Part shown: piece by piece, positions 3,516-20,738 of the stretch | How the letters are laid out: every line of letters starts with the position of its first letter | Position numbering within the stretch: the first letter of the stretch is position 1 | NCBI GenBank assembly: GCA_964247735.1 | Contig: CAXTVS010000054.1 | Location: forward strand, 1-21,752 | From: an uncultured Acetobacteraceae bacterium | Lineage (GTDB): Bacteria > Pseudomonadota > Alphaproteobacteria > Acetobacterales > Acetobacteraceae | DNA length: 21,752 bases | Direction of reading: 5' to 3' | The notes under the pieces: model-generated | Told to the model about the DNA's origin: nothing | Databases searched by the model: none | The model's input: only the letters and a program-made list of their open reading frames with translations | Program-made: the position numbers and the translations under genes

Positions 3516-3630
3516 GAAGACTCTGTAGCCGCTTTCCCCGCCTGCTGCCACGACTTTGCATATAATCGATGATCCATTGACTGATAGACTCTCCAGGTGC
3601 ACTTTCCCATGAGGTCACGGGAGGAGCACG
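3516..3630. promoter_or_regulatory. Divergent promoter/operator region between the GntR regulator gene and the FAH-dioxygenase-hydroxylase-decarboxylase operon.
   Basis: This 115-bp spacer is locally AT-richer than its surroundings. It holds a consensus TATAAT at 3561-3566 and a near-perfect 12-bp palindrome ATAATCGATGAT at 3562-3573. It also holds TTGACT at 3577-3582 and the palindrome GTGCAC at 3597-3602. A strong RBS, GGGAGGAG (3619-3626), sits 5 nt before ATG 3631. Which hexamers act as -35/-10 for each strand cannot be decided from sequence alone. Confidence 0.4.
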
Positions 3631-4527
<897 letters not shown>

Positions 4528-4600
4528 CCAGCGCAGCCCGTTCTTCCGACAAAGCCGGCAGGGCGTGGCAGGAGACGTGGGCCGACCGGAGGAAAACAGA

Positions 4601-5587: not shown

Positions 5588-5644
5588 GGGGCTGGTACTT
5601 GGCAACACGTCGAACACGATCGTCTCACGCCGGAGCAAGCAACG

Positions 5645-7279: not shown

Positions 7280-7298
7280 GCAGTATCGGAGTCGTGCC

Positions 7299-8273
7299 TT
7301 GACTGAGCAGCCCTTCCTGCCGCGTGTGGATGTGCACGCGCACTACCTTCCGGCCGGCTACCGCCGCGCTGCGGAGGCGGCAGGCCACCAACACCCGGAT
7401 GGAATGCCCGGCCTGCCGCGATGGGACGTGGACGCCGCGCTCGGCATGATGGATGGACTCAACATCCGCAGCGCCATGCTGTCCATCTCCTCTCCCGGCG
7501 TGCATTTCGGCGACGACCATGCGGCGCGCGCGCTGGCGCGCGAGGTGAACGAGGACGGCGCCCGGGCCGCCTCGGACCATCCGGGTCGCTTCGGATTATT
7601 CGCTGCGCTGCCGCTGCCCGACATCGACGGCTCCCTGGAAGAAGCCGCCTACGCCCTGGACGTGCTCGGGGCCGACGGGGTCACGGTCGAGACCAACCAC
7701 CACGGCCTCTACATGGGCGACCCGCAGCTCGACCCGCTGTTCGCCGAGCTCAACCGCCGGCGCGCCGTGGTGTTCATGCACCCTACCTCGCCCAGCTGTC
7801 CGTGCTGCCAGACGCTGTCGCTTGGCTATCCGCGGCCGATGATCGAGTTCATGTTCGAGACGACGCGTGCAGTCGCCAACCTGCTGCTGACCGGCACGCT
7901 GGACCGCTTCCCGGACATACGGCTGATCGTGCCGCATGCCGGCGCGGCGGTGCCGGTCCTGGCGGACCGGATCGCCGGCCTGTCGCCTGCCCTGACGTTG
8001 CCGAGCCCGGTGGAGCCGGATCGGCTCTTCGCCACCCTGCGTCGGCTGTATTACGACTTGGCGGGCTTTCCGCTGCCGCGTCTGGCACCGGCGCTGCTGC
8101 AGATCGCCGATCCGGGACGCATCCTCTACGGCAGCGACTGGCCGTTCACGCCGCTGCCGATCGCGACGCGCCTGGCCGGCGACATCGACGCCACGCCGCT
8201 GTTCGACGCGTCGCTGCGCCGCCGCATCCTGCAGGACAATGCCCTCGACCTGTTCCCACGCCTGCGCGGCTGA
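7299..8273 (+). CDS. Amidohydrolase-2 (ACMSD-family) metal-dependent non-oxidative decarboxylase/hydrolase. It is like gamma-resorcylate, 2,3-dihydroxybenzoate, 5-carboxyvanillate or salicylate decarboxylases.
   Basis: The N-terminal VDVHAHYLP (HxH metal motif) and C-terminal YGSDWPF are characteristic of PF04909. The product is 324 aa, a typical size. The start is TTG at 7299, with GGAG 7 nt upstream. It lies 20 nt after the hydroxylase stop, so it is probably co-transcribed. Confidence 0.8.
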   Translation: MTEQPFLPRVDVHAHYLPAGYRRAAEAAGHQHPDGMPGLPRWDVDAALGMMDGLNIRSAMLSISSPGVHFGDDHAARALAREVNEDGARAASDHPGRFGLFAALPLPDIDGSLEEAAYALDVLGADGVTVETNHHGLYMGDPQLDPLFAELNRRRAVVFMHPTSPSCPCCQTLSLGYPRPMIEFMFETTRAVANLLLTGTLDRFPDIRLIVPHAGAAVPVLADRIAGLSPALTLPSPVEPDRLFATLRRLYYDLAGFPLPRLAPALLQIADPGRILYGSDWPFTPLPIATRLAGDIDATPLFDASLRRRILQDNALDLFPRLRG

Positions 8274-8337
8274 AGGAGAAGACCGGAGTCGAAGCGGATC
8301 GCTGCCAGGACCGACACCACGCCCTGGTTCACCGGTC

Positions 8338-8355
8338 GCCGCCGACCGGCCGGCG
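8338..8355 (+). terminator. GC-rich hairpin 65 nt downstream of the decarboxylase stop. It is a weak candidate terminator for the aromatic operon.
   Basis: CCGGTCG-ccgc-CGACCGG forms a perfect 7-bp stem with a 4-nt loop. No T-tract follows. Confidence 0.2.
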
Positions 8356-8385
8356 GCACTCCGGATCCCGTCGAACGGTTGCCAA

Positions 8386-8442
8386 AGATGAGGGAACGCG
8401 TTTCTTGAAACACTGGGCGTACAGCTTTGGCGCCAAGCAGGA
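8386..8442. promoter_or_regulatory. Cluster of perfect palindromes in the unassigned spacer upstream of the thiolase operon. It is a candidate multi-site operator or promoter.
   Basis: Within 57 bp there are three perfect palindromes. They are AACGCGTT (8401-8408), GTTTCTTGAAAC (8406-8417, which contains TTGAAA) and TTGGCGCCAA (8433-8442). In addition, TTGCCAAAG (8386-8394) is inverted against CTTTGGC (8431-8437). This stretch is locally the AT-richest part of the 570-bp spacer. Confidence 0.3.
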
Positions 8443-8624
8443 CGGCCAGGTCAGCGGCTTGCGCCTGCCGTGTCGCCTTCTGCGAGAGTGGAGAGCGCGG
8501 TCTGGATGCGCAAGGCGGCGAGGCGCTACGGCGGGTCGAGGGGGCAGTCGGCCTGTCCTTCGCCGATCCCGGACGTCTGCTTCTGGCTTCCGTGCAGACC
8601 CGAGCACGGAGGTGGAGGCCGGGC

Positions 8625-8759
8625 ATGATGGACACGATCCCGCACAGCCTTCCGGCCTCGCCAGGCGCCGCTGCCGGGGCGATTGCGTTCGGCGGCGCCG
8701 GCGGGGTGGAGCGCCGGGCCGACTCGGGCGAGGACGTGCATGGTATGCACGCGGTCTGA
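8625..8759 (+). CDS. Possible small ORF (44 aa, Ala/Gly-rich) with a strong RBS. It could be a leader peptide or small protein, or a chance ORF.
   Basis: A tandem GGAGG..GGAGG (8607-8618) sits 6 nt upstream of ATGATG. The product would be MMDTIPHSLPASPGAAAGAIAFGGAGGVERRADSGEDVHGMHAV. GC3 is ~80%. No recognisable domain is present. It lies in the spacer before the thiolase gene. Confidence 0.15.
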   Translation: MMDTIPHSLPASPGAAAGAIAFGGAGGVERRADSGEDVHGMHAV

Positions 8760-8845
8760 CGCTTACTGACTGCGGCAGTGATGGAGAAGGCGCGACTGCC
8801 GCTGTCCGTCATGGTCGGCTACCAGGACACTGAGGACGAACGGTA

Positions 8846-10024
8846 ATGGCTGACAGGGACATCGTGATCGTCGGCGCGGCGCGCACGCCGGTCGGCAGCT
8901 TCAACGGCGCCTTCGCGGCCACGGCGGCGCACCTGCTGGGTGCGGCTGCGATCGGCGCGGCGCTGCGGCGCGCCGAGGTGGCGCCGGCCGAAGTGGATGA
9001 GGTGATCCTGGGTCAGGTTCTGACCGCCGCCCAGGGCCAGAACCCGGCACGCCAAGCGGCTCTTGCCGCAGGGCTGCCGCAGGAAGCCACCGCCTGGGGC
9101 ATCAACCAGGTGTGCGGTTCCGGCCTGCGCTCGGTGGCGCTCGGCATGCAGCAGGTCGCCGCCGGCGACGCGTCGGTGGTTGTTGCCGGCGGCCAGGAAA
9201 GCATGAGCCTGGCGCCGCACGCTGCCCACATGCGGGCGGGGCGGAAGATGGGCTCGATGTCCCTGGTCGACACCATGGTCGTGGACGGGCTGTGGGACGC
9301 CTTCAACGACTACCACATGGGCAACACGGCGGAGAACATCGCCACGCGCTGGCAGATCGGGCGGGCGGAGCAGGATGCGTTCGCCGCGCGGTCGCAGAAC
9401 AAGGCGGAGGCGGCGCGGGCGGCGGGCCGCTTCCGCGACGAGATCGTGCCGGTGACGGTCGGCAGCCGGCAGGGCGCGCGGCTTGTCGACGAGGACGAGC
9501 ACATCCGGCCGGGAACGACGATCGACGGCTTGTCGAAGCTGAAGCCCGCCTTCGACGGGACGGGCACCGTCACCGCCGGCAACGCGTCGGGCCTCAACGA
9601 CGGGGCCGCGGCCGTGGTGCTGATGACGGCGTCCGAGGCGGCGCGGCGCGGCCTCCTGCCGCTGGCGCGGATCGCGTCCTGGGCGACGGCGGGGGTCGAT
9701 CCCGCCTTCATGGGCACCGGGCCGGTCCCGGCCTCCCGCAGGGCGCTGGAGAAGGCCGGCTGGACCGTCGACGACCTCGATCTGGTCGAGTCCAACGAGG
9801 CGTTCGCAGCCCAGGCGTGCATGATCAACCACGAGATGGGCTGGGACCCGTCGATCGTGAACGTCAACGGCGGCGCCATCGCCATCGGCCACCCGATCGG
9901 CGCGTCGGGCGCCAGGGTGCTGGTGACGCTGCTGCACGAGATGCGTCGCCGGGACGCGGCGCGCGGCCTGGTGACCCTGTGCATCGGCGGCGGCATGGGC
10001 GTCGCGATGACGCTGGAGCGTTGA
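8846..10024 (+). CDS. Acetyl-CoA C-acetyltransferase (acetoacetyl-CoA thiolase, thiolase II; PhaA/AtoB-type).
   Basis: The product is 392 aa. The N-terminus reads IVIVGAARTPVGSFNGAF. The catalytic-Cys region reads INQVCGSGLRSV. The motif GQVLTAAQGQNPARQAALAAGLP is of the biosynthetic/acetoacetyl-CoA type rather than the PcaF/PaaJ type. The C-terminus reads GLVTLCIGGGMGVAMTLER. GAGGA lies 9 nt upstream of ATG 8846. Confidence 0.92.
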   Translation: MADRDIVIVGAARTPVGSFNGAFAATAAHLLGAAAIGAALRRAEVAPAEVDEVILGQVLTAAQGQNPARQAALAAGLPQEATAWGINQVCGSGLRSVALGMQQVAAGDASVVVAGGQESMSLAPHAAHMRAGRKMGSMSLVDTMVVDGLWDAFNDYHMGNTAENIATRWQIGRAEQDAFAARSQNKAEAARAAGRFRDEIVPVTVGSRQGARLVDEDEHIRPGTTIDGLSKLKPAFDGTGTVTAGNASGLNDGAAAVVLMTASEAARRGLLPLARIASWATAGVDPAFMGTGPVPASRRALEKAGWTVDDLDLVESNEAFAAQACMINHEMGWDPSIVNVNGGAIAIGHPIGASGARVLVTLLHEMRRRDAARGLVTLCIGGGMGVAMTLER

Positions 10025-10093
10025 CCCGTCTTTTCCCCCAAGCCTGTCGCCGCCCCCGCCGGGGCCGAGCCGATGCCAAGGTCGGACTGCACC

Positions 10094-10804
10094 ATGATGA
10101 CCAAGACCTATCCTGACGCGGACGCGGCGCTCGACGGCCTGCTGTCCGACGGCATGCTGATCGCCGCCGGCGGCTTCGGGCTGTGCGGCATCCCCGAGCG
10201 GCTGATCGCCGCGATCGAGCGGGCCGGCACCAGGCGCCTGCGCATTGCCTCCAACAACGCCGGCATCGACGGCGTCGGGCTCGGCCGCCTGCTTCGCTCG
10301 CGCCAGGTGGCGATGATGATCAGCTCCTATGTTGGGGAGAACAAGGAGTTCGAGCGCCAGTACCTGGCCGGCGAGCTGGAGGTGGAGTTCTGTCCGCAGG
10401 GGACGCTGGCCGAGCGGATGCGCGCCGGCGGTGCCGGCATCCCCGGCTTCTACACGCGCACCGGCGTCGGCACGCTGGCCGCCGAGGGCAAGGAGCACAA
10501 GACGTTCGGGGACCAGGTCTGCATCCTCGAGCGCGGCATCTTCGCCGACCTCGCGATCGTCAAGGCCTGGAAGGCCGACGGGACGGGCAACCTGGTGTTC
10601 CGCAAGACCGCGCGCAACTTCAACGTTCCCGCAGCCATGTGCGGGCGCGTCACGGTGGCGGAGGTGGAGGAGATCGTGCCCACCGGCACGCTTGATCCGG
10701 ACGGCGTGCACCTGCCGGGCGTGTTCGTGCAGCGCATCGTCTGCGGCGCGCCCTACGACAAGCGGATCGAGTTCCGCACGACCCGCTCGAGGGAGGTCGC
10801 CTGA
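10094..10804 (+). CDS. scoA: 3-oxoacid (succinyl-CoA:acetoacetate) CoA-transferase, subunit A.
   Basis: The protein is collinear, from memory, with B. subtilis ScoA and other ScoA/AtoD proteins: [93 protein letters not shown]. The start is placed at ATGATG 10094 by N-terminal alignment. ATG 10073 is possible but has no RBS. The stop overlaps the next start (TGATG). Confidence 0.88.
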
Positions 10805-11448
10805 TGCCCTGGACCCGCGACCAGATGGCCGCGCGCGCGGCCGGCGAGCTGCGCGACGGCTACACCGTCAACCTGGGCATCGGCATCCCGACCCTGGTGG
10901 CCAACAACATCCCTGCCGGCATGACGGTGACGCTACAGAGCGAGAACGGCATGCTGGGGATCGGTCCGTTCCCCTACGAGGACGAGGTGGATGCCGACCT
11001 GATCAACGCAGGCAAGCAGACCATCAGCGAGCTGCCCTCGTCGTCCTACTTCTCGTCCGCCGACAGCTTCGCGATGATCCGCGGCGGCCACATCGACCTC
11101 ACCGTGCTGGGGGCGATGGAGGTGGCCGAGACCGGCGACATCGCCAACTGGATGATCCCGGGGAAGATGGTGAAGGGAATGGGCGGCGCCATGGACCTGG
11201 TCGCGGGCGTCAGGAAGGTCATCGTGGTGATGGAGCACAACGCGAAGAACGGCGAGCCGAAGTTCGTGCCGCGCTGCACCCTGCCGCTCACCGGTCTGAA
11301 CGTGGTCGACATGATCGTCACCGACCTTTGCGTCTTCCGGCGGCCCGACCGCACACGCCCGTTCCGCCTGATCGAGCTGGCACCAGGAACCACGCAGGAC
11401 GAGGTCGCCGCACGCACGACCGCGCATTATGAAACGAGAATTGGCTGA
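10804..11448 (+). CDS. scoB: 3-oxoacid CoA-transferase, subunit B.
   Basis: The protein matches the ScoB/AtoA family, from memory of B. subtilis ScoB: [71 protein letters not shown] and [14 protein letters not shown]. The catalytic Glu sits in LQSENG. The gene is translationally coupled to scoA. Confidence 0.9.
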
Positions 11449-11632: not shown

Positions 11633-12865
11633 ATGCGCGATGTCTTGATGACGGGAGCTCCGGGCGACGTCGCGGAGTTGGATCACGACTGGCTGGCGGT
11701 CATTGCCGCCTCGATCGGCCTGATTTTCAGCGCCGGCACCCTGACGATCTATTCCTTCGGCGTGTTCGTGCATCCTCTGCACGCGCAGTTCGGCTGGAGC
11801 CGCACCCAGCTCGGGGGCGCCGTCGCGATCTCGCAGCTTGGACTGGCGGTGGCATCGCCGCTGTGGGGCTCGGCGATCGATCGCCTCGGCCCGCGGATCG
11901 TGCTGCTGGTCTCGGTGGTAATGATCTCGCTCCTGATCGCATCGCTGTCGCTGCTCACCCCGCATCTGTGGCATCTGTATCTGGCGTACGGCGCCATCCC
12001 GTTCCTGGCGGCCGGCGCCTCGCCGCTTGGCTATTCCGCCGTCCTGATCCGGCGCTTCGAACGCCATCTCGGTCTGGCGCTGGGCCTGGCAACCATGGGC
12101 GTCGGTTTAGGCGCCACCCTGCTTCCTCTCATTGCGCAGATCCTGGTCGGAACCTTCGGCTGGCGCGACGCCTACGCGATCATCGGCGTGATCACCGTGG
12201 TGATCGGTATACCGGCCGCCCTGGTCACCACGCGTCACGTGCGCGGTCCGGTGGCGCGCCGGAGCGACGTCGCCGCGCCGCCGGTCATGCCGCTGATGCG
12301 GACCGGGACCTTTATCCTGCTGTGCACGGTGTTCTTCCTGCTAGGCATCACCACCGTCGGCGTGCTGGCGCAGCTGGTGCCGATGATGATCGACCGCGGC
12401 TTCTCTCCGCCGGCGGCGGCCCGGATGGCGGCCCTGACCGGCCTCGCGGCGCTGGTCAGCCGGGGCGGCATCGGCTGGGTGCTGGACCGGGCGCAGGCGC
12501 CGCGCGTGGTCGCAGCCATCGCGGTGCTGGCTGCCGTCTCCTTCCTGCTGCTGGTGTTCGGCCCGACCCACGGCGCGAGCTACTTCGCGGTCGTGCTGCT
12601 GGGGGGAGCCATTGGCGCCGAGGTGAACTTCATCGCCTACCTGACCCGCCGCCACTTCCCGCAGATGGTGTACGGCCGCCTCTACGGCGTCGAGTTCGGC
12701 ATCTACCTCGTCGGCGGCGGGATCGGGCCGCTGCTGCTCGGGCTGAGCTTCGATCACATGGGCGGCTACACCCCAAGCCTGCTGCTATTCACCGTTCTGG
12801 TCCTAATCGCGGCCGGCTTCGCGCTGCGGATCCCGAGGCATGGCCTCCTCGCCGGCTCGCGTTGA
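11633..12865 (+). CDS. Major facilitator superfamily (MFS) transporter, 12-TMS type. Substrate unknown.
   Basis: The product is 410 aa, with ~12 hydrophobic segments arranged 6+6 around a central charged loop (TTRHVRGPVARRSDVAAPPVMPLMRTG). An MFS-like motif follows TMS2 (GSAIDRLGPRIVLL). The RBS is GGGGAAG. Confidence 0.85.
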   Translation: MRDVLMTGAPGDVAELDHDWLAVIAASIGLIFSAGTLTIYSFGVFVHPLHAQFGWSRTQLGGAVAISQLGLAVASPLWGSAIDRLGPRIVLLVSVVMISLLIASLSLLTPHLWHLYLAYGAIPFLAAGASPLGYSAVLIRRFERHLGLALGLATMGVGLGATLLPLIAQILVGTFGWRDAYAIIGVITVVIGIPAALVTTRHVRGPVARRSDVAAPPVMPLMRTGTFILLCTVFFLLGITTVGVLAQLVPMMIDRGFSPPAAARMAALTGLAALVSRGGIGWVLDRAQAPRVVAAIAVLAAVSFLLLVFGPTHGASYFAVVLLGGAIGAEVNFIAYLTRRHFPQMVYGRLYGVEFGIYLVGGGIGPLLLGLSFDHMGGYTPSLLLFTVLVLIAAGFALRIPRHGLLAGSR

Positions 12866-12989
12866 GCGGAAGCCCTGCAGCGTGGGTCTGCATCATCGAA
12901 CCTCAGGGATCGAAGAAGACAAACGTGTTCACGACGAGCAGGGGTTCCGGCCGTTGACGATGCGGGCGCCTGGATTTTTGGAAGACAGA

Positions 12990-14600
12990 ATGGCAGAAAC
13001 GTCTAGTAGCTTTCGGAACGACCGGCCTACGGGGCGGCGCGGATGGCGTCGTTCGCTGCTCGCCGCCATGACCCTGGCCGCCGCTGCCTTCGTTCCGGTC
13101 GCAGCCCGATCGGCAAGAGCGGATGCGCCAGCAACTGTGGCCGGCGACTTGGTTCTGGACGGCGTCACGATCGTCGATACCCGCACCGGTGCGCTTGCGC
13201 CGAACATGGCGGTCGTGGTGTCGGGCGGCAGGATCGCGCAGATCCTGCGCGCGCCCGTCGCCGTCGGTGCCTCGACCAGGCTGGTCGAGGCACAGGGCAA
13301 GTTCGTGGTGCCGGGCTTCAACGACTTGCACGCCCATCCTCTGGGCGACCCCGACCCGTCGAGCAGCCTCATCATGCTGCTGGTCAACGGAGTCACCGGC
13401 GTCCGTCAGATGTCAGGATCGCCGGAAATGCTGATGGACCGGAAGAACGGCAAGCTGCCCTCCGCCGGCGCGGCACCGGAGATCCTGGCGATGCCCGGGG
13501 CCATCTTCACCCGCCAGAACGCGCCCACCCCGGAGGCCGGCGTCGCGGAGGTGGACAGGCAGAAGACGGAAGGGGCGGACTTCATCAAGGTGGTTGATGT
13601 CTCGCCGTCGACCTTCTTTGCCGTTGGCGCGGAGGCGAAGAAGGTCGGGCTGCCGTTCGAGGGACATCTTCCCAACGGGGTTGATGCGGTCAAGGCCGCC
13701 GCGGCGGGCTACCGCTCGATTGAGCATCTGGGACCGTTCGACACGCTGCTAATCTCGTGCTCGACCGACGAGGACGCAATCCGCGCCTCGGTCGCTAGGC
13801 TGCCGGTGGCCAGCATCCCGTCCTTCATCCCCGGCTTCATGGTGCGCAAGATCGTCCGTGCGGCGATTTCCGAGCCGCTTCTTGCACGGGTAAAGTCCGA
13901 CCCGACCACGATCTCCCGGCTGCAGCACGTCGTCGACACCTTCAGCGAAGCCAAGTGCCGCAAGGTGGTGCAGGAGCTTTCGGCCAGTGGAACCTGGCAG
14001 GCGCCGACCCTGATCCGCGACCGCACAATGGATTTCGGTGACGATCCGGTCTACCGCAACGACCCGAACCTCCGCTACGTGGCGTCGCCGACGCGCGAGT
14101 TCTGGTTCGGACTGGCCCAGCGCTACTCGACCACGATCACGCCAAGCGACAAGGCCACGCTGTCGCAGTTCTGGAACCTGCAGCTCAAGCTGCTCAAGCT
14201 GCTCGACCAGTCGAACACGCCGATGATGGCTGGGTCGGATCTGGGCGGACAATGGGAAATACCGGGCTTCAGCCTGCACCAGGAATTCGACCTGCTGGCA
14301 CAGAACGGCATCGCGCCATTGAAGGTCCTGCAGATGACCACCCTCAACGGCGCCAGGTTCTTCGGCCGCGAGGCGAGCATGGGCACCGTCGAGCAGGGCA
14401 AGAACGCCAACCTGGTGTTGCTCGATGCCAACCCGATGGAGAGCGTCCAGAACCTGCACAGGATCGACGGCGTGGTTCGCGCCGGGACCTACTATTCGCG
14501 GCACGATCTCGACGCGATGAAGCAGATGGTGGAACAGCGGCTGGCATCCGGCGCGCTCGACGCCCAGTCCGAGGCGATTCCGGGTGGTGACAGCCGATAG
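12990..14600 (+). CDS. Metal-dependent amidohydrolase-superfamily hydrolase (TIM-barrel, PF01979/PF07969-like), with a Tat signal peptide that probably exports it to the periplasm.
   Basis: The N-terminus carries a twin-arginine motif followed by a hydrophobic region and an AxA site: GRRGWRRSLLAAMTLAAAAFVPVAARSARA|DAPA. The amidohydrolase N-terminal beta-sandwich (VDTRTGALAPNMAVVVSGGRIAQIL) and the HxH metal motif (VVPGFNDLHAHPL) are present. So is the conserved C-terminal EQGKNANLVLLDANP. The start is set at ATG 12990 (MAETSS). ATG 12960 and ATG 12840 are in-frame alternatives. Confidence 0.85.
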   Translation: MAETSSSFRNDRPTGRRGWRRSLLAAMTLAAAAFVPVAARSARADAPATVAGDLVLDGVTIVDTRTGALAPNMAVVVSGGRIAQILRAPVAVGASTRLVEAQGKFVVPGFNDLHAHPLGDPDPSSSLIMLLVNGVTGVRQMSGSPEMLMDRKNGKLPSAGAAPEILAMPGAIFTRQNAPTPEAGVAEVDRQKTEGADFIKVVDVSPSTFFAVGAEAKKVGLPFEGHLPNGVDAVKAAAAGYRSIEHLGPFDTLLISCSTDEDAIRASVARLPVASIPSFIPGFMVRKIVRAAISEPLLARVKSDPTTISRLQHVVDTFSEAKCRKVVQELSASGTWQAPTLIRDRTMDFGDDPVYRNDPNLRYVASPTREFWFGLAQRYSTTITPSDKATLSQFWNLQLKLLKLLDQSNTPMMAGSDLGGQWEIPGFSLHQEFDLLAQNGIAPLKVLQMTTLNGARFFGREASMGTVEQGKNANLVLLDANPMESVQNLHRIDGVVRAGTYYSRHDLDAMKQMVEQRLASGALDAQSEAIPGGDSR

Positions 14601-14730
14601 GCGCGGACGTCGCGCGACTCGGCCGCAGGGGAAGAGCCTTATAAGGTCCGGCCAATCCGTCGCCGGCAACGCAGGGGCAACGCGATGCGACCACAGCCCG
14701 ACTGACCGACAACCCTGGAGGTTCGAGCCG

Positions 14731-16593
14731 GTGCGCTTGGCGACTTTGACTTCCCTCACCTTGGAAGGACGACAGGACCTCCGGCCCGCCGTTGCCACCG
14801 GGCTCGGAGGCGTCCTGTTCCTGGTTGCGGCCGCGGCATTCCGATCCGGCGCGGCAGGGGCGATGTCGGACAGTGTTGCCGCGTCGCTGGGCATCGCCAC
14901 CTCCGGATGTGCCGCCGCGGTCTTGATGGTCAGGGCGCGCGTCATCCTGCTTCGGGCGGAGCACGAGGCGGCGCCTGCTGCGGCTGCGAACCGGAGGGCT
15001 AAGGCGCTGCGCCTGCGCGCCGGCCGTCTGGGCGGCTGGCAGCAGACGGCGCTCGGCGGCCTGATCGCGGCTGCCAGCACCTGGGCTGGAGCGTCCGCTC
15101 TCCTTCACGACACGAGCTGGAATGGTGGAACGGGGCAGGCAACGGCCGGTGGGATCGCGTTGCTGGTGGGCTCCTTCGCGCTTCTGGTGGTCGAGCGCCA
15201 TCTCGCGGCCCTCGCCCCGGTCGTCCTGCCGGAAGCGCCTGTCCTCGCCTGCCTGATCCGGGTGCCGATCGCGGTATCGGCGCTTTGCGGCGTCGGCTGC
15301 CTGATGCTCGGTGCAGGGATCGGCCTCGGCCGTCATGCCGGCCCGGCCTCGGCGATTCTTTGCCTCCCTGTGGCCGCCGAAATCGTCATCCGCGCCCTGG
15401 CGACTATGTTCGTGCCGTTCCCGCCGCCGGACGAAGCCCGGATGACGGTCCGGAGCGCGATCGCCGGCGCGATCGCCCTGCGACGTCCGCCGCCCGACGC
15501 GATGCGCGACCTGTTCGGCATCGATCTGTCGTACAGTTGTGCGCTCGCGTTCGTCCGCGCAGCCCTCGTGCCGGTGACGGCGGTGCTGGCGCTGATCGGG
15601 TGGGCGCTGTCCGGCGTCGAGGCCCTGCACCTAGACCAGCGCGGCGTCTATGAGCGGTTCGGCCAGCCGGTCGTGGTATTCGGCCCCGGACTGCACCTCC
15701 ATCTGCCCTGGCCGATCGGGCGGCTGCGTCCGGTGGAGTTCGGCGTGCTGCACGACGTTCCCGTCGCGTTCGCAGCTGGCGGGGGTCCAGCCGCGACCAC
15801 GTCGGCCCCGCCGGCGGCGGAGGCGGATCCTGGGCCTGCCGAGGACCGGCTCTGGAACGGAACCCGCGCCTCCGAAAGCGCCTACCTCGTCGCCAGCCTG
15901 TCGCGCGGCCGGCAGAGCTTCGAGAGCCTCGACATCGGCCTGCGCGTGGTCTACCGCGTCGGCCTGTCCGACGCCGCGGCGCTGGAGGCTGCCTTCGCCG
16001 TCGGCGATCCGCAGCGCCTAGTCCAGGCCAGGACCAGCCGGCTGCTGGCGCGCTACGTCGCCCACCACACCCTGCCGGACATGCTGGGATCCGGCCGCGC
16101 CGGCTTCGCGCGCGACATCGCCACGTCGCTGCAGGACGGGCTCGATGCCAGCCGGACCGGCCTGCAGGTGATGGCGATCGTGGTCGAGGCGATCCATCCG
16201 CCGGCCGGTGCCGCTGAGGCCTATCACGCCGTGCAGGCGGCCGAGGTCAACCGCCACACGACCATCGCCGAGCAGCAGGCAGAGTCGGCGCAGGCCGAGA
16301 TCGATGCGAGGCGCGACGCGACCAATGTCGCCAACGCCGCCGCGGCGAACGCTCGCGACGCGGTAGTCGATGCCGAGGTGGGCGCCACCGCGTTCGCCGC
16401 CGACCGCACCGCGGACGCGCGCAGCCCGGCCTCCTTCATCCTGGAGCGCCGCCTCGACAAGCTCGCGAGCGGGCTCGCGCACCGGAGGCTGCTGATCGTG
16501 GACCATCGCTTGGGAACGGCCGGCGTGCTGCTCGACCTGCGCTCTTCCGGCGGCGGCGCGATGCTTCTGCCGCCGCGCAGCCGCGAGCCATAG
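14731..16593 (+). CDS. HflK/HflC-like SPFH (band-7) protein fused to a ~280-aa polytopic N-terminal membrane domain of unknown family (SPFH-A).
   Basis: The proposed start is GTG 14731, 10 nt downstream of GGAGG (14716-14720). Residues 1 to ~280 contain about 6 hydrophobic helices (for example GLGGVLFLVAAAAF, IALLVGSFALLVV, LIRVPIAVSALCGVGCLMLGAGIGLG, ILCLPVAAEIVIRALATMFVPF). GC3 is high in this frame only. Next comes the canonical SPFH anchor and entry, LVPVTAVLALIGWALSGVEALHLDQRGVYERFGQPVVVFGPGLHLHLPWPI. An Ala-rich coiled-coil follows, then an HflK-like C-terminus FILERRLDKLASGLAHRRLLIVD. Confidence 0.8.
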   Translation: MRLATLTSLTLEGRQDLRPAVATGLGGVLFLVAAAAFRSGAAGAMSDSVAASLGIATSGCAAAVLMVRARVILLRAEHEAAPAAAANRRAKALRLRAGRLGGWQQTALGGLIAAASTWAGASALLHDTSWNGGTGQATAGGIALLVGSFALLVVERHLAALAPVVLPEAPVLACLIRVPIAVSALCGVGCLMLGAGIGLGRHAGPASAILCLPVAAEIVIRALATMFVPFPPPDEARMTVRSAIAGAIALRRPPPDAMRDLFGIDLSYSCALAFVRAALVPVTAVLALIGWALSGVEALHLDQRGVYERFGQPVVVFGPGLHLHLPWPIGRLRPVEFGVLHDVPVAFAAGGGPAATTSAPPAAEADPGPAEDRLWNGTRASESAYLVASLSRGRQSFESLDIGLRVVYRVGLSDAAALEAAFAVGDPQRLVQARTSRLLARYVAHHTLPDMLGSGRAGFARDIATSLQDGLDASRTGLQVMAIVVEAIHPPAGAAEAYHAVQAAEVNRHTTIAEQQAESAQAEIDARRDATNVANAAAANARDAVVDAEVGATAFAADRTADARSPASFILERRLDKLASGLAHRRLLIVDHRLGTAGVLLDLRSSGGGAMLLPPRSREP

Positions 16594-16601
16594 GAGCGGA
16601 C

Positions 16602-17660
16602 GTGTCTGGACATCGTCACCATGACCATGAGCACATTCATGGCGATCACCATGGTCACCGGCACGCGGTGCCAGAGGACGTTCCGGCGCGGCTACGCTGC
16701 ACCGGCCCTTTGATCGTTGTAGCTCTGATCGCGCTCCTGACCTTTTCCGCCACCTGCCTGACCGTCGTGGAACCGGGCCAGGCGGTGGTGCTGACCGCAT
16801 TCGGCGCACCGGTGCGGGTGATGACCGAGCCGGGCCTGACGCTGCGCTGGCCAGCGCCGTTTGAGGCGGTCGTGCCAGTCGATGTCCGACTGCGCACCAC
16901 GTCCACCGGCCTGCACGACGTCGGCACGCGCGACGGCCTACGCATCCTGGTGCAGGCCTATGTCGAGTGGCGGGTGCCCCCGGATGCCGGCCGCGTCGTC
17001 CAGTACCTCCAGGCGGTGCGCAACGCGCCGGACGAGGCGGCCGAGCAGCTGCGCAGCTACCTGGGGTCGTCGCTGGAGATCGTGGCGGCGCGCTACGACC
17101 TGTCGCAGCTGGTCAACACCGATCCGTCCAGGGTGCGGCTCGACGCGTTCGAGGACGTCCTCAAGGCCCACCTTCAGGCGCAGGTGCTCGCCGGATATGG
17201 AATCAGCATTCTGCATGTCGGGATCGAGCGCCTGACATTGCCGGGCGACACGTTGGAGGCAACCGTCACGCGCATGACGGCGGAGCGCAACACAGTTGCC
17301 GCACGCATCAACGCGGAGGGCGAGCGGGCCGCGTCGGAGATCGAATCGGACGCCTCGCGCGACGCACGGATCGTGGCCGCCAACGCGCGCGCCGAGGCGG
17401 CGCGGGTGGAGGCCAGGGCGGGGCTGCAGGCAGCCGACATCTATGCCGCCGCCTATAGCAGCGCGCCCGGGCTCTACACTCTGCTGCGCTCGCTCGACAT
17501 GCTGGGAACGGTGGTCGGGGACAACACGCGGCTGGTGCTGCGGACCGATGCCGCGCCGTTCGGTGCCTTCGTTTCCGGTCCGTCCGTCATGGCCCCAGCC
17601 GCCGCTTCAGACACCGTGCCGGGCGCTGCGCCAGCTCCGGCGTCGGGCCGGAAACGCTAG
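16602..17660 (+). CDS. HflC-like SPFH (band-7) protein with a His-rich N-terminal cytoplasmic tail (SPFH-B).
   Basis: The GTG start is 9 nt after the SPFH-A stop, and AGGAG overlaps that stop. The N-terminus reads (M)SGHRHHDHEHIHGDHHGHRHAVPEDVPARLR, with 11 His in 18 residues. A single TM follows (LIVVALIALLTFSATCLTVV). The SPFH core reads VEPGQAVVLTAFGAPVRVMTEPGLTLRWPAPFEAVVPVDVRL. An Ala/Arg-rich coiled-coil follows (ERNTVAARINAEGERAASEIE...ARAEAARVEARAG). The C-terminus is HflC-like (PGLYTLLRSLDMLGTVVGDNTRLVLRTD). Confidence 0.85.
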   Translation: MSGHRHHDHEHIHGDHHGHRHAVPEDVPARLRCTGPLIVVALIALLTFSATCLTVVEPGQAVVLTAFGAPVRVMTEPGLTLRWPAPFEAVVPVDVRLRTTSTGLHDVGTRDGLRILVQAYVEWRVPPDAGRVVQYLQAVRNAPDEAAEQLRSYLGSSLEIVAARYDLSQLVNTDPSRVRLDAFEDVLKAHLQAQVLAGYGISILHVGIERLTLPGDTLEATVTRMTAERNTVAARINAEGERAASEIESDASRDARIVAANARAEAARVEARAGLQAADIYAAAYSSAPGLYTLLRSLDMLGTVVGDNTRLVLRTDAAPFGAFVSGPSVMAPAAASDTVPGAAPAPASGRKR

Positions 17661-17662
17661 GG

Positions 17663-18730
17663 ATGGCTTCGACCGCGGCTGGATCCATCCGTGCCTTGAT
17701 ACATGGACCTCGGGCGCAGGGACCTTGGACGCAGGCGATCCGGCTTGCCTTCCGGGCGACGTTCGGCCTCGTGCTGGCGGCAGCCCTGGCATGGCCGTTC
17801 ACCAACATCACCGAGGTCCAGCCGGACAGCCGTGCGGTGGTGCTGCGCCTGGGACGGGTGGTGCGGGTGCAGGGGGCCGGCCTGCTGCTCGCCTGGCCGA
17901 GGCCGTTCGAGCGGATCGTGCTGCTACCTTCCGCAGAGCGCCAGATCGAGTTCTCGTTCGACCCGCTTCGGTCGCCAAGCGGCCCCGGGGGTACGTCGAC
18001 GGAGTGGGCGGTGCAGGCCGACCCGCGGCAGAACGCCGCGTTCTTCATGACGTCGGACGGGGTGGTCCACCTGACCGCGAGCGTGTTCTACCACATCGTC
18101 GATCCGGCCGAGTACGTGCTGGAGACCGGCCGCGTGCCGGCGGCCCTCAAGGCGCTCACCATGGCGAGCGTGGTCGCCCTCGCGGCGGCGCGCGACACCG
18201 ACACCCTGGTCGTTACCCGTGGCGGCACCGACCTGACGCAGGCCGACCGGATGCGGCGGGAGCGGCTGCGCATCGACCTGGCATCGGCAATCAACCGGCA
18301 GCTGGCCGAGCTGCGGCGGCTGGATGCCGGCCTCGGCGTCGAGATCAGCCGGGTCGACGTCGGCACCGCGCTGCCGAGCGGCGCCAAGGCCGCCTTCGAG
18401 GAGGTGCTGACTGCCGCTCAGCAGGCCGACTCACTAGTCGCCGAGGCGCACAGCGTGGCCATCCGGATCGAGCAGACCGCGCAGCAGAACCGGACTGCCC
18501 TGTTGGCCGAGGCCAGGGCCTCGGCCGACGGGCGCGTCGCCGCCGCCATCGCCCGCACCGCCTCGATCCGTACGCTGGCGCGTCCGGCCGGCGGCCTCGC
18601 CGGGCTCGCGCTGCTGACCGGCATCTACAACGACCGCATGCGCGCCATCCTGCACCAGGCTGGATCGGTGGACGTGTTCGACCCTCATAGCGGCACGTGG
18701 CTGGTGCTGCCTGGCCAGACGGCGCGCTGA
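17663..18730 (+). CDS. HflK/HflC-like SPFH (band-7) protein, third paralogue (SPFH-C).
   Basis: The ATG is 2 nt after the SPFH-B stop, so the genes are translationally coupled. There is a short N-terminal cytoplasmic segment and one TM (FGLVLAAALAWPF). The SPFH entry reads EVQPDSRAVVLRLGRVVRVQGAGLLLAWPRPFERIVLLP. A coiled-coil follows (EAHSVAIRIEQTAQQNRTALLAEARASADGRVAAAIA). The HflK/C-type C-terminus reads LLTGIYNDRMRAILHQAGSVDVFDP. Confidence 0.85.
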   Translation: MASTAAGSIRALIHGPRAQGPWTQAIRLAFRATFGLVLAAALAWPFTNITEVQPDSRAVVLRLGRVVRVQGAGLLLAWPRPFERIVLLPSAERQIEFSFDPLRSPSGPGGTSTEWAVQADPRQNAAFFMTSDGVVHLTASVFYHIVDPAEYVLETGRVPAALKALTMASVVALAAARDTDTLVVTRGGTDLTQADRMRRERLRIDLASAINRQLAELRRLDAGLGVEISRVDVGTALPSGAKAAFEEVLTAAQQADSLVAEAHSVAIRIEQTAQQNRTALLAEARASADGRVAAAIARTASIRTLARPAGGLAGLALLTGIYNDRMRAILHQAGSVDVFDPHSGTWLVLPGQTAR

Positions 18731-18792
18731 GCGGTTTCGCTGCGATGGACAGCGCCGGCGGCAATGGCCCGACCCTGGCGAGGACGCGCCGG

Positions 18793-18813
18793 GGCGGTCA
18801 TGCCGCCTCATTT
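18793..18813 (+). terminator. Candidate intrinsic terminator after the SPFH operon.
   Basis: GGCGG-tcatg-CCGCC is followed by TCATTTGGG, a GC stem with a short T-rich tail. It lies 63 nt after the SPFH-C stop. On the other strand it sits between the convergent alpha/beta-hydrolase gene end and the SPFH operon. Confidence 0.3.
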
Positions 18814-19110
18814 GGGCGTCTCGGCGCCCCGCGATCGGCCACCGGCAGCAGCACGTCCGCCTCAGGTCCTGGACGCGGTCGCGCGCGTCGCAGCCGATTT
18901 CCCGAACGACGTCCCGACCACGATGACGGCACAGGCGATCCTGCTGCGTACGGCGGCGGTGGGGCCAGCCTGTCCTCAGGTCGGCGAAGCCCTCTGCCGG
19001 TATCCGAAGCCTGCTTGCTTCGGCCTCCTGTCCGCAGGCGGGCCGGCCGCAGCCGGCCCGTGCGGAGATTACCGGGACGAGCCTCGCGAGCTCAAAAGCC
19101 CTCTTCCCGG

Positions 19111-20082
19111 TCAGGGTGCTCCCTCAGGCGAGGACGAAGACGCGGCACGGTTCTCCACCTCGCGCATGAACGCGTCGACGACGGTGTTGAACTCCTCGGC
19201 ACTTGCTTGCTGCACGAAATGGTTGGACGCCCGAACGACGACGTAGCGGCCGCCGGTCATCTCGGCGACGACGCTGCCGACCGTGTCGAAGGACGAGCTC
19301 CAGCCGCCGCTGATGACCAATACCGGAATGCCCGACCTGGCAATCGTTTCCGCCGCCTGCTGCAACATTGGCGGCGGCGCCATGCGCCCCTGCAGCAGCG
19401 CGCATCCGACCCGCGTCGCCTGCTCCGGATCGTTCTGGAAGGCGGTGGTGACGGCGTTGGGCCCGTCGCCCTCGGTGCCCATGCCGCGCGCGAAGGCCAG
19501 GCCGTATTCGCCCGGCGTGCGGACCTCCATCATCAGCTTCATGATCTGGGCGCCGGCCATCTTGATGGCGGGGTCGGTGGCGGCACGCGGATGCACCATC
19601 AGCAGAGGGTGCAGCGCCGGCTCGATGAGGGTGAGGGAACGCACCGCCTCCGGACGGCGGCCAGCCGCCAGGAGCGCTTCCGCACCACCCCAGGAATGAC
19701 CGATCAGGTGGGCGCTCCCCCCCAGCATGTCGGCGATCCAGACCGAGTCGGCCTCCATGTCGTCGACGCCCCGGGACACGCTCCGGCCGAAGCCCGGCCG
19801 GTCGACCACTGCCAGTTGCCAACCCTTCTCGGCCAGCGGCTTCTGCTTGTCGAAGGTTCTCGGCCCCCCGCCCAGGCCCCCCTGCACGCCGCCGTGCACG
19901 ACCAGCACCGTAGGTCCGGTCGTTCCCCAATAGTTGACGTGGATCGGATGCTTGGCCGCTTCTTCGGGCGAGAGCCTCGGCGGCGGTGACGGGCACTGGG
20001 CCAGAAGGGCTGCCCGTTGCCTCGCGATCGCGGCACCAGGGCCGGCCGCCTCCGGCGCAGCAGGACTGGACTGGGACATCAT
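19111..20082 (-). CDS. Alpha/beta-fold hydrolase (Ser nucleophile; esterase/peptidase-like), downstream of and co-directional with the TetR gene.
   Basis: The nucleophile elbow reads HLIGHSWGGAEAL (G-x-S-x-G). The oxyanion region reads VLVVHGG. The product is ~324 aa, the usual alpha/beta-hydrolase size. The start is set at ATGATG 20082/20079, 4-7 nt after AGGAAGGA. The ATG at 20097 in the table has no RBS and overlaps the tetR stop. Confidence 0.85.
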   Translation of the reverse strand: MMSQSSPAAPEAAGPGAAIARQRAALLAQCPSPPPRLSPEEAAKHPIHVNYWGTTGPTVLVVHGGVQGGLGGGPRTFDKQKPLAEKGWQLAVVDRPGFGRSVSRGVDDMEADSVWIADMLGGSAHLIGHSWGGAEALLAAGRRPEAVRSLTLIEPALHPLLMVHPRAATDPAIKMAGAQIMKLMMEVRTPGEYGLAFARGMGTEGDGPNAVTTAFQNDPEQATRVGCALLQGRMAPPPMLQQAAETIARSGIPVLVISGGWSSSFDTVGSVVAEMTGGRYVVVRASNHFVQQASAEEFNTVVDAFMREVENRAASSSSPEGAP

Positions 20083-20096
20083 ATGATCCTTCCTCA

Positions 20097-20738
20097 TCAG
20101 GTCTTATGCAAATTCGAGGGATCAGGCAGCCCCTCTGAGAGCTGCTCCAGGGCCTCGCGCAGGAGCGGCACTAGCGGCACCGGTGGATCGGCCTTGAGGA
20201 ACGCATCGATTGCTACCTGAATTGTACCGGTCACCGCTGCTGCCACCAGCCTGGGGTAAAGGTCTTTGTCGATGTCAGTACTGCTGCGTCGGGCGACTGC
20301 TGCAGCGAAAGGGTTGTCCTCAGCGAAGCCTGCCTTCAGAACCTCCGCACGGACGGATGACGCTGCGAACAAGGTGCGCAACTCAGCCGCAGAGGCAGGA
20401 TTGGGTGCCGTGTGGCCTCGGGCCGCGTGGCTCCAAGGCGACATGACCGCATTGATGATCGCATCCCATAGCAGCTCGTCCGCCGGCCTGGCGTGCAGGG
20501 CATTGGCGACGTGACGCATCCTGCCGACGAACTGCGCGGTCAGCGCCTCATATTTGTTGGAGAAGTAGTTGTTAAAGGTCCGCACGGAGACATCCGCCTC
20601 GGCTGCGATGTCTTCTATACGTAGTGCTTCAAGGCCATGCCTCAGCGTCAAACGCATGGCCGCGGCAGCCAGAGCATCCCGAGTTGCCTGCTTCTTCCGC
20701 TCGCGTAGGCCGCGTCCGGCCGCTGTCAAATCGATCAT
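20097..20738 (-). CDS. TetR/AcrR-family transcriptional regulator.
   Basis: The N-terminal HTH reads RERKKQATRDALAAAAMRLTLRHGLEALRIEDIAAEADVSVRTFNNYFSNKYEAL. The C-terminal domain is helical. The start is trimmed to ATG 20738 (MIDLTAAG...) so that the promoter and palindrome upstream remain non-coding. The 51-codon extension in the table is poorly coded. Confidence 0.85.
   Translation of the reverse strand: MIDLTAAGRGLRERKKQATRDALAAAAMRLTLRHGLEALRIEDIAAEADVSVRTFNNYFSNKYEALTAQFVGRMRHVANALHARPADELLWDAIINAVMSPWSHAARGHTAPNPASAAELRTLFAASSVRAEVLKAGFAEDNPFAAAVARRSSTDIDKDLYPRLVAAAVTGTIQVAIDAFLKADPPVPLVPLLREALEQLSEGLPDPSNLHKT

Follow-up and report, generated by a model that had tools for sequence, protein, structure and literature searches.

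A trio of SPFH genes, probably orphaned from an HmtA-type heavy-metal ATPase operon, in an uncultured Acetobacteraceae bacterium

Contig CAXTVS010000054.1 of an uncultured Acetobacteraceae bacterium (assembly GCA_964247735.1; all 21,752 nucleotides were analysed and are called the window here) carries three consecutive genes for HflK/HflC-like SPFH proteins, which we term A, B and C, and raises the question of what such a set works with. To our knowledge, no bacterial SPFH cage other than HflK/HflC has a known client, which in that case is FtsH. The initial annotation had observed that neither FtsH nor NfeD is encoded nearby, and a Pfam scan of the window's open reading frames bore this out, finding no gene for FtsH, for NfeD or for any further SPFH protein. 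The answer that we consider probable is that the trio is a conserved SPFH set or scaffold which, elsewhere, shares an operon with an HmtA-type P1B ATPase and which has been orphaned in this genome.

Gene content and family assignment of the trio

The genes and the parts of their products that concern us here are as follows.

14731–16593, + strand: gene A, 620 aa, polytopic N-terminal domain followed by HflK-like SPFH and coiled-coil parts
14731–15504, + strand: N-terminal membrane domain of A (residues 1–258), six long helices
15538–15609, + strand: transmembrane helix 7 of A (residues 270–293), an HflK-type anchor, from a model and a hydropathy scan
16602–17660, + strand: gene B, 352 aa, an HflC-like protein of the SPFH type with a single transmembrane helix
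16602–16664, + strand: N-terminal, His-rich tail of B (MSGHRHHDHEHIHGDHHGHRH), with a predicted cytoplasmic location
17663–18730, + strand: gene C, 355 aa, an SPFH protein of divergent HflK-like type with a single transmembrane helix

The longest open reading frame of gene A begins at a GTG at 14584; we placed the start at the GTG at 14731, which is common to the homologues and has GGAGG 9 nt 5' of it. Three full HflK/HflC-type SPFH proteins, tightly packed and with different N-termini, had been described from the sequence, and this description stands: all three lie on the + strand, with gaps of 8 nt (A/B) and 2 nt (B/C), where the family mode is a 4-nt overlap, and A starts with about seven hydrophobic helices, B with its His-rich tail and C with a short, plain N-terminus. 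As had been expected, each protein matched Pfam Band_7 (PF01145; gathering cut-off, 23.6 bits), with 55.4 bits for A (E = 1e-14), 103.8 bits for B (E = 1.4e-29) and 57.3 bits for C (E = 2.8e-15), and this was the sole Pfam match in any of them.

The top NCBIfam models were hflK for A and C and hflC for B, but no member of the trio counts as a canonical HflK or HflC, as all fell far under the equivalog cut-offs (A, 59.4 bits, and C, 62.9 bits, against 159.4 bits for HflK, TIGR01933; B, 95.3 bits against 134.4 bits for HflC, TIGR01932). Among E. coli structures in the PDB, B matched HflC (E = 3.9e-17) and A matched HflK (E = 1.4e-8), making an alternating assembly of K-type and C-type subunits plausible; gene C found no match in the PDB by phmmer. 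Pairwise identity between A, B and C in local alignments is about 30% or less; they are old paralogues and not products of a recent duplication.

This architecture is not confined to the window. We found 180 homologues of gene A of 600–700 aa with the same length and architecture (one of them, P0001, is 100% identical to A), and A is 33–36% identical to Pseudomonas A proteins, with invariant motifs in common. The N-terminus of B has 10 His within its first 45 residues. Among 78 non-identical B proteins of Alpha- and Gammaproteobacteria, 68 have a His-rich tail with at least 5 His; judged by these sequences, the His-rich tail is conserved across the family. Searches for near-identical DNA in plasmids, and of PADLOC defence models against A, B, C and an amidohydrolase encoded upstream, returned no matches.

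The gene neighbourhood in other genomes and in the window

Relatives of gene A were found in at least 534 stretches of a one-genome-per-species collection, and the best 80 of these were retrieved for a survey of gene neighbourhoods. Where at least 2.1 kb of downstream sequence was available, the order A–B–C–P1B heavy-metal ATPase was present in 74 of 76 retrieved loci, with the ATPase directly following C. The absence of a partner, on which the initial annotation had placed weight, is thus peculiar to the window locus. C and the ATPase gene overlap by 4 nt in 58 of 71 loci, and the four genes are shown by their sequences to be spaced as for translational coupling. Assignment of the ATPase to the P1B type is clear (TIGR01525, 493–518 bits against a cut-off of 346), and the P1B ATPases adjoining the trio carry CPC in TM4 and HN in the last transmembrane helix.

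One retrieved Pseudomonas aeruginosa locus (L085) contains Band_7 genes of 666, 341 and 346 aa, followed by a 144-aa gene, a P-type ATPase gene and a DUF4946 gene, a layout by which it corresponds to the published PA2439–PA2434 cluster. A, B and C of the window take the positions of PA2439, PA2438 and PA2437: the N-domain motifs of PA2439-type proteins (F..LLV.ER, LPEAP and E...R..F.P) are present in window A, the second protein is HflC-like and His-tailed, the third is short and HflK-like, and the order is the same. By sequence, then, the window trio matches PA2439–PA2438–PA2437 gene for gene. The suspicion that the trio might turn out to be a widespread, already annotated hflK/hflC duplication was right in part, as to its spread (the at least 534 stretches) and its HflK/HflC annotation. 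The P. aeruginosa genes have been described before, but solely as members of the Zur regulon (PMC4542158, PMC8531726 and PMC11761036).

In other genomes, the module often adjoins zur and znuABC. Two of the closest relatives of the window locus (L003 and L086) have the order zur, S9 peptidase, znuA, A, B, C, ATPase and adjoin znuCB and a TonB receptor gene, and in another locus (L088) the module is flanked by znuABC, NicO/DUF1007 and HupE. A conserved CGTTATATCGTAACG box precedes A by about 100 nt in Pseudomonas loci. In P. aeruginosa, a znuA mutant showed 9- to 14-fold upregulation of PA2437–PA2439 (PMC4542158), the PA2439 promoter was shifted by Zur in vitro in an EMSA (PMC8531726), and levels of the PA2438 and PA2439 proteins rose on zinc depletion (PMC11761036). 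Co-regulation of trio and pump is nevertheless imperfect, as one study found hmtA mRNA out of step with the other Zur targets (PMC8531726).

Scanning with Zur-box patterns of the gamma and alpha types gave clear boxes in Pseudomonas and in two further loci (L022 and L034), and none in the window. What the window does have at about this position is the following.

14637–14646, no strand assigned: perfect palindrome CCTTATAAGG, unique in the window, 85 nt upstream of A

At least one match to this palindrome occurred in 8 of 100 shuffled controls. Two Acetobacteraceae relatives (L006 and L012) carry GCGTTATAACGTAGC at the matching position, and CCTTATAAGG may correspond, in degenerate form, to the CGTTATAACG box that lies upstream of A in these two genomes; it deviates at positions that the relatives' boxes have in common, and so does not make a convincing Zur box. 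No zinc genes were found in the window, a sigma-70 promoter scan of 14400–19200 gave no match, and terminator-like hairpins there were intragenic only.

Among retrieved loci, the window is the sole one with an intact trio but without the ATPase. A tblastn search of the window for ATPase fragments, taken to E = 100, returned only noise, and what can be recognised at the place of the missing gene is a single short feature.

18727–18752, + strand: probable 5' remnant of a lost P1B ATPase gene, the ~25 nt after C

In relatives the ATG of the ATPase overlaps the stop codon of C, and the window has CTG there. The remnant reads CTGAGCGGTTTCGCTGCGATGGAC in the window against ATGAGCGGTGCGGCGACGATGGAT in L003, and DNA similarity between the two loci stops 19 nt past the C stop codon. 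From this comparison the ATPase gene appears to have been deleted from the window locus, with a recognisable remnant of just ~25 nt. The window trio adjoins aromatic-catabolism genes instead. With neither ATPase, convincing Zur box nor zinc genes in the window, the function of the trio is not inferable from this locus itself.

The same losses suit a less favourable reading, which we regard as unlikely, that the window trio is the non-functional leftover of a disrupted operon, its open frames heading for decay. In its favour, nothing of the ATPase beyond the first ~25 nt can be recognised, the window is without a Zur-like box, transposase fragments lie at the end of the contig, and such disruption does happen, as shown by a locus (L019) in which C is truncated and the ATPase absent. 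The window proteins also have private substitutions in 10 columns with conservation of at least 95% (among them W270C, H379R, D403G and P599V in A, R36P and R137Q in B, and H157R and E290G in C), the highest count among intact modules. These could reflect relaxed constraint, although a locus that retains the ATPase (L040) carries a similar number, 9. Against decay, all three reading frames are complete over ~4 kb with no internal stops or frameshifts, and Shine–Dalgarno sites and coupling distances are preserved. Of the columns that relatives conserve to at least 90%, about 90% are retained (95 of 106 in A, 125 of 136 in B and 66 of 73 in C), and the window proteins have diverged from their own clade about as far as those of L009, a locus with its ATPase in place. 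The thought that one of the genes might be a pseudogene, named at the outset as something that would overturn the description of the trio, can be set aside on the same evidence.

What the trio might do

For the preferred reading, a scaffold operonic with an HmtA-type ATPase, the functional link between trio and pump is one that we infer solely from gene neighbourhood. A, B and C would assemble as a hetero-oligomeric ring or cage like that of HflK/HflC. Helix 7 of A would put the SPFH part in the periplasm, with the topology taken from the Arg-rich loop at residues 74–100, and the SPFH and coiled-coil parts of the cage would all face that compartment. Such a cage could corral, stabilise or gate the ATPase in place of FtsH. 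At the cytoplasmic side of the pump, the His-rich tail of B, itself cytoplasmic, might relay zinc or offer a docking site, and a conserved, cytoplasm-facing Glu/Arg cluster in the N-domain of A might do the same beside it. In the window, deletion of the ATPase gene and loss of the zinc-regulon context would have left an intact orphan trio, which may work with an ATPase from another site in the genome or be in early decay. A more specific proposal, possible though we doubt it, has a periplasm-facing cage surround a CPC/HN HmtA-type ATPase, with the CDF-like domain of A and the cytoplasmic poly-His tail of B forming the zinc relay, as the proteobacterial counterpart, for zinc starvation, of mycobacterial PacL/CtpC. 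On that proposal it would be the first bacterial SPFH cage to have a transporter, rather than a protease, as its dedicated client, and the orphan trio of the window would show a cage persisting and serving another client.

Several P. aeruginosa papers treat the trio as modulators of FtsH (PMC9431628 and PMC11761036), and it could accordingly be read as an alternative HflK/HflC set acting on this zinc metalloprotease under zinc limitation. The curated models that match best are hflK and hflC, the only solved structures matched are E. coli HflC and HflK, and the source annotations say ‘protease modulator HflK/HflC’. We nonetheless find this rather improbable, because the scores are so far short (59 against 159, 95 against 134 and 63 against 159), three genes, one of them with an additional membrane domain of 260 aa, stand in place of a gene pair, and the conserved neighbour is a P1B ATPase. 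The hfq–hflX–hflK–hflC context is missing, with hfq, hflX and ftsH absent from the window and from the six related loci with called genes; Pseudomonas also has a canonical hfq–hflX–hflK–hflC locus at a separate genome site.

The N-terminal domain of A invites another explanation, in which it is itself a CDF-type zinc transporter and the trio is self-sufficient without the ATPase. Its top structural matches are the membrane domains of CDF zinc transporters, in fold only: like YiiP and ZnT/SLC30 proteins it forms a membrane bundle of six helices, which correspond in sequential order over 170–200 residues, and both occur in a zinc-related context. The Foldseek E-values were not significant, however, with TM-scores of 0.35–0.41, and short helical bundles scored nearly as well with a second model. 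Sequence similarity to CDFs is nil: no Pfam match was obtained for the domain even at E = 10, PDB chains gave only a designed channel that matched by composition, a profile search of the PDB found no CDF, and hhalign against a provisional E. coli YiiP sequence returned a probability of 0.3%. The invariant residues (R70, F149, R156, E217, R221 and F227; window A retains all invariant columns of 16- and 59-sequence alignments) include Arg and Glu at helix ends, and no conserved Asp or His was found in the helices, so that the Asp/His pairs of the CDF metal site (site A, in TM2 and TM5) are missing. A also lacks the cytoplasmic CDF domain and, unlike CDFs, leads into a seventh helix and an SPFH protein; no CDF genes were found in the retrieved loci. 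Together these points make a CDF-type transporter very unlikely.

The remaining candidate partner, which the initial annotation had put forward as a caged client, lies directly upstream.

12840–14600, + strand: metal-dependent amidohydrolase, secreted and bearing an RR signal peptide (Amidohydro_1, E = 2.7e-15); membership of the system uncertain

That the trio cages or organises this Tat/Sec-exported enzyme is the least probable reading: an enzyme of similar size does lie directly upstream of A on the same strand in five Xanthobacteraceae-type loci (L011, L013, L014, L020 and L087), and the SPFH parts are, like the enzyme, predicted to be periplasmic, but the window and Xanthobacteraceae-type enzymes are just 24% identical, the gene is missing from the closest relatives (L003, L086, L006, L012 and L009) and from ~70 other loci (no Pseudomonas locus has it), and the enzyme is predicted to be soluble, whereas the SPFH clients known to us so far are membrane proteins. 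No Zur-like boxes were seen near the amidohydrolase gene of the Xanthobacteraceae locus L087.

If the preferred reading, an SPFH scaffold for a P1B ATPase, is true, the module would be a second widespread SPFH assembly, linked to a metal pump, and would widen the roles of such cages. It would account for three genes of the Zur regulon, in P. aeruginosa and many soil bacteria, that are now labelled FtsH modulators. It also bears on whether HmtA truly imports zinc, and on how a P1B ATPase could do so, as HmtA has so far been studied apart from its three conserved partners. For annotation, the window genes are best labelled as an orphaned trio of the PA2439–PA2437 type, neither hflK/hflC nor a system without a partner.

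Comparison with known systems

The nearest counterpart is the PA2439–PA2437 set. As in the window, its first protein is long, polytopic and of the SPFH type, the second is HflC-like with a His-rich tail, and the third is short and HflK-like; unlike the full PA2439–PA2434 cluster, the window is without the ATPase, the accessory genes PA2436 and PA2434, and a Zur box. With E. coli HflK/HflC–FtsH (7VHP, 7WI3 and 9CZ1) the trio shares an N-terminal transmembrane anchor, the SPFH domain, long Ala-rich helices and a C-terminal tail. It differs in comprising three paralogues instead of two, in the six-helix domain added to A and the His-rich tail added to B, and in adjoining a P1B ATPase gene and not hflX/hfq, with FtsH unlinked.

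The mycobacterial PacL1–CtpC ‘effluxosomes’ (PMC9374683 and PMC13043812) are the closest parallel for a scaffold beside a metal pump, and the resemblance is, from comparison of the two, a functional analogy only. PacL1 is a membrane-anchored, Glu/Ala-rich scaffold with a His/Asp metal-binding motif, operonic with a P1B ATPase, and both CtpC and the trio-adjacent ATPases have CPC in TM4 and HN in the last transmembrane helix. PacL proteins are, however, small DUF1490 proteins of Actinobacteria only and are non-SPFH (PMC9374683 and PMC13043812), and A, B and C have no Pfam match to DUF1490 (PF07371). The two systems also face opposite conditions, in that PacL counters zinc excess by efflux whereas induction of the proteobacterial module follows zinc starvation, and HmtA has been reported as an importer of zinc and copper (PMC10393844).

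An SPFH trio and its conserved neighbour

Three consecutive genes of the window, A, B and C, encode HflK/HflC-like SPFH proteins and are separated by only 8 nt (A/B) and 2 nt (B/C), in agreement with the initial annotation.

Genes of the trio
14731–16593, + strand: A, open reading frame, Band_7 above the Pfam threshold, best NCBIfam model hflK
16602–17660, + strand: B, open reading frame, Band_7 above the Pfam threshold, best NCBIfam model hflC
17663–18730, + strand: C, open reading frame, Band_7 above the Pfam threshold, best NCBIfam model hflK

The longest reading frame for A opens at GTG 14584, and the start common to all homologues is GTG 14731, with GGAGG 9 nt upstream; GGAG lies ahead of B. 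The N-termini differ as had been described, with about seven hydrophobic helices ahead of the SPFH part in A, one helix each in B and C, and the sequence MSGHRHHDHEHIHGDHHGHRH at the start of B. Of 78 distinct B proteins, drawn from both Alpha- and Gammaproteobacteria, 68 keep this His-rich tail, and the periplasmic half of A carries six nearly invariant histidines (H322, H341, H379, H489, H499 and H592). The three proteins share about 30% pairwise identity or less. Among solved structures, B and the C-terminal half of A have no relatives other than E. coli HflC and HflK, and phmmer found none for C.

Searching with A matched 180 proteins from Acetobacteraceae, Xanthobacteraceae, Bradyrhizobium and Pseudomonas, most of 600–700 aa with the same architecture; their names read ‘SPFH domain-containing protein’ or ‘protease modulator HflK’. 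Scanning a set with a single genome for each species for a pattern confirmed at least 534 stretches with an A relative. The trio is thus widespread and already annotated, as the initial annotation had allowed it might be. Its NCBIfam scores (A, 59 bits; B, 95; C, 63) fall below the curated cut-offs (hflK, 159 bits; hflC, 134), so the proteins are HflK/C-like, not HflK/C.

We surveyed the neighbourhood of 84 fetched loci by tblastn, querying with A, B and C and with the gene that lies downstream in two of the loci. A was followed by B and then C in every locus with room. Of the 76 loci that extend 2.1 kb or more beyond C, 74 have a P-type ATPase as the next gene; the window and one other locus (L019) were the two without it. 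A 4-nt overlap was the commonest spacing (B/C, 56/79 loci; C/ATPase, 58/71). The four-gene module is thus conserved, its genes spaced for translational coupling. In L019 (10516–13540), C is shortened to 265 aa and no Pfam-recognisable genes occur in the 2.2 kb after it.

By its TIGR01525 score (493–518 bits against a cut-off of 346) the ATPase is one of the P1B heavy-metal pumps; it has CPC in TM4, DKTGT, and HN conserved in its final TM helix (L003–L088, Pseudomonas loci). The window holds no counterpart of this CPC and HN ATPase, and FtsH and NfeD are likewise absent from its genes; that the system as a whole lacks a partner did not hold. Modulation of FtsH, which is what the annotations of the trio say, is disfavoured: the hflK/hflC scores are sub-threshold, there is one gene and one domain more, and the neighbourhood is a different one. 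The trio is a scaffold variant of HflK/C kind whose conserved neighbour is another gene.

Probable loss of the ATPase gene in the window

Other features of the window
173–748, left contig end: truncated IS4/IS5-type transposase reading frame
2778–11448: aromatic-compound catabolism cluster and acyl-CoA genes, none zinc-related (GntR/FCD regulator, FAA hydrolase, extradiol dioxygenase-type protein, FAD monooxygenase, Amidohydro_2, thiolase, two CoA-transferase subunits, in that order)
12840–14600: secreted amidohydrolase, directly upstream of A
18697–19989, + strand: 430-aa reading frame without family, antisense to the alpha/beta hydrolase gene
19111–20097, − strand: alpha/beta hydrolase, downstream of the trio
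Downstream of the trio, opposite strand: TetR regulator
Elsewhere outside the trio: OprB porin; MFS transporter

No ATPase was found anywhere in the window by tblastn up to E=100. DNA similarity to the closest loci spans C and ends 19 nt past its stop codon, where the window reads CTGAGCGGTTTCGCTGCGATGGAC and L003, of the closest clade, has the ATPase start ATGAGCGGTGCGGCGACGATGGAT. The CTGAGCGGTTTCGCTGCGATGGAC stretch looks like a remnant of a deleted ATPase gene: its first eight codons, with the start codon mutated. About 360 nt of non-coding DNA follow before the convergent hydrolase gene. The missing partner is probably a local loss. The transposase fragment suggests that the region has been rearranged. 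The 430-aa reading frame, the first codons of which take in the putative ATPase remnant, is most likely a GC-rich artefact.

A, B and C are intact, none of them a pseudogene, and keep about 90% of strongly conserved columns; they lie about as far from their clade as those of L009, which retains the ATPase. Ten private substitutions in the window copy fall on columns with at least 95% conservation, two His-to-Arg changes (A H379R and C H157R) among them. The family conserves both of these periplasmic histidines, and Arg replaces them in the window copy alone, where W270 of A is Cys; the changes could mark loss of a metal-related site after loss of the pump. Relaxed constraint is possible but not shown, because L040, with its ATPase retained, has nine such substitutions. 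We consider it unlikely that the window trio is a decaying remnant.

The amidohydrolase had been proposed as a possible caged client of the trio. Five Xanthobacteraceae-type loci (L011, L013, L014, L020 and L087) do share with the window a secreted amidohydrolase of about 570–590 aa directly upstream of A, but the window enzyme and theirs are only 24% identical, so the shared position lends the proposal a weak boost. Defence-system models gave no match.

Zinc genes and the Pseudomonas aeruginosa counterpart

The B protein of P. citronellolis, used as a query, led to a P. aeruginosa protein from a locus (L085) with the order SHMT, SdaA, GcvT, two genes, Band_7 genes of 666/341/346 aa, a 144-aa gene, a 660-aa P-type ATPase and DUF4946, which matches the published PA2439-PA2438-PA2437-PA2436-hmtA(PA2435)-PA2434 cluster. 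The P. aeruginosa group has this 144-aa gene in addition, between C and the ATPase at the PA2436 position (L085:9857–10291; also the C/ATPase gap of L081); it has no Pfam family. Zur regulation is documented in P. aeruginosa: PA2437–PA2439 rose 9- to 14-fold and hmtA 5.6-fold in a znuA mutant, with a weak Zur site predicted for the PA2434–PA2439 cluster (PMC4542158), purified Zur gave a zinc-dependent shift of the PA2439 promoter (PMC8531726), and zinc depletion raised PA2438 and PA2439 proteins (PMC11761036). All three studies label the three proteins HflC/HflK-type FtsH modulators.

Nearly all Pseudomonas loci (L031–L084 and others) carry a (C/T)GTTATATCGTAACG box ahead of A, about 100 nt away, with positions spanning some 90–180 nt; it is probably that weak Zur site and is nearly invariant over dozens of Pseudomonas species. 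L022 and L034 have strong Zur-like boxes. No Zur-type box was found ahead of A in the window. Only one element stands out there, CCTTATAAGG (14637–14646), a perfect palindrome that is not repeated in the window. It occupies the position of GCGTTATAACGTAGC in L006 and L012 and deviates where the GCGTTATAACGTAGC boxes agree with the znuC–zur intergenic boxes of L003 and L086.

The module adjoins zinc genes in several lineages other than P. aeruginosa. In the closest clade of the window (L003, L086) the operon runs zur, S9 peptidase, znuA, A, B, C, ATPase, divergent from znuC, znuB and a TonB receptor gene. Its Peptidase_S9 serine peptidase gene, between zur and znuA (L003:6450–9906; L086:7011–9849), may supply a zinc-independent stand-in for a metallopeptidase. 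On a Bradyrhizobium-type contig (L088:5870–9946 and 17672–20194) the module sits inside a metal island, with HupE/UreJ, DUF2946 and DUF1007–NicO upstream and znuABC downstream.

The N-domain of A and a possible pump scaffold

No family was found for the polytopic N-domain of A (residues 1–258): Pfam was negative, its profile matched neither a CDF nor any other natural protein among PDB entries (the sole match, by composition, was a designed channel), and a single-sequence search of 1.8 billion representatives recovered only proteins of the same architecture or their fragments. The AlphaFold model of residues 1–318 was confident (pLDDT 84.5, pTM 0.77), with six long helices, a linker and an anchor helix, and Foldseek independently ranked YiiP first for the N-domain, but only at E=0.23 with TM-scores of 0.35–0.41. 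The helices carry no conserved Asp or His, and hhalign against a YiiP sequence returned nothing; a ‘CDF-like fold’ is therefore only a lead from the predicted model, not family membership. Invariant R70, E155, R156, R177, E217 and R221 lie at helix ends that should face the cytoplasm, because of an Arg-rich loop at residues 74–100.

We propose that A, B and C may form an HflK/C-like ring, with B as the C-type subunit and A and C as K-type. The SPFH and coiled-coil regions would be periplasmic. Such a ring would enclose or stabilise the P1B ATPase, not FtsH, and the cytoplasmic B tail and the cytoplasm-facing motif cluster of A might work at the cytoplasmic face of the pump.

The closest functional analogy is the mycobacterial PacL1/CtpC platform, in which the P1B ATPase CtpC is stabilised by PacL1, a membrane scaffold that carries Glu/Ala repeats and a DLHDHDH motif (PMC9374683). 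The two differ in direction and regulation: under zinc excess CtpC acts as an exporter of the metal, whereas HmtA has been reported to import zinc and copper, a claim that a review says needs confirmation (PMC10393844). CtpC and the trio-linked ATPases both combine CPC with HN, a combination termed ‘P1B6-like’ in CtpC, which too depends on an operon-encoded scaffold (PMC9374683).
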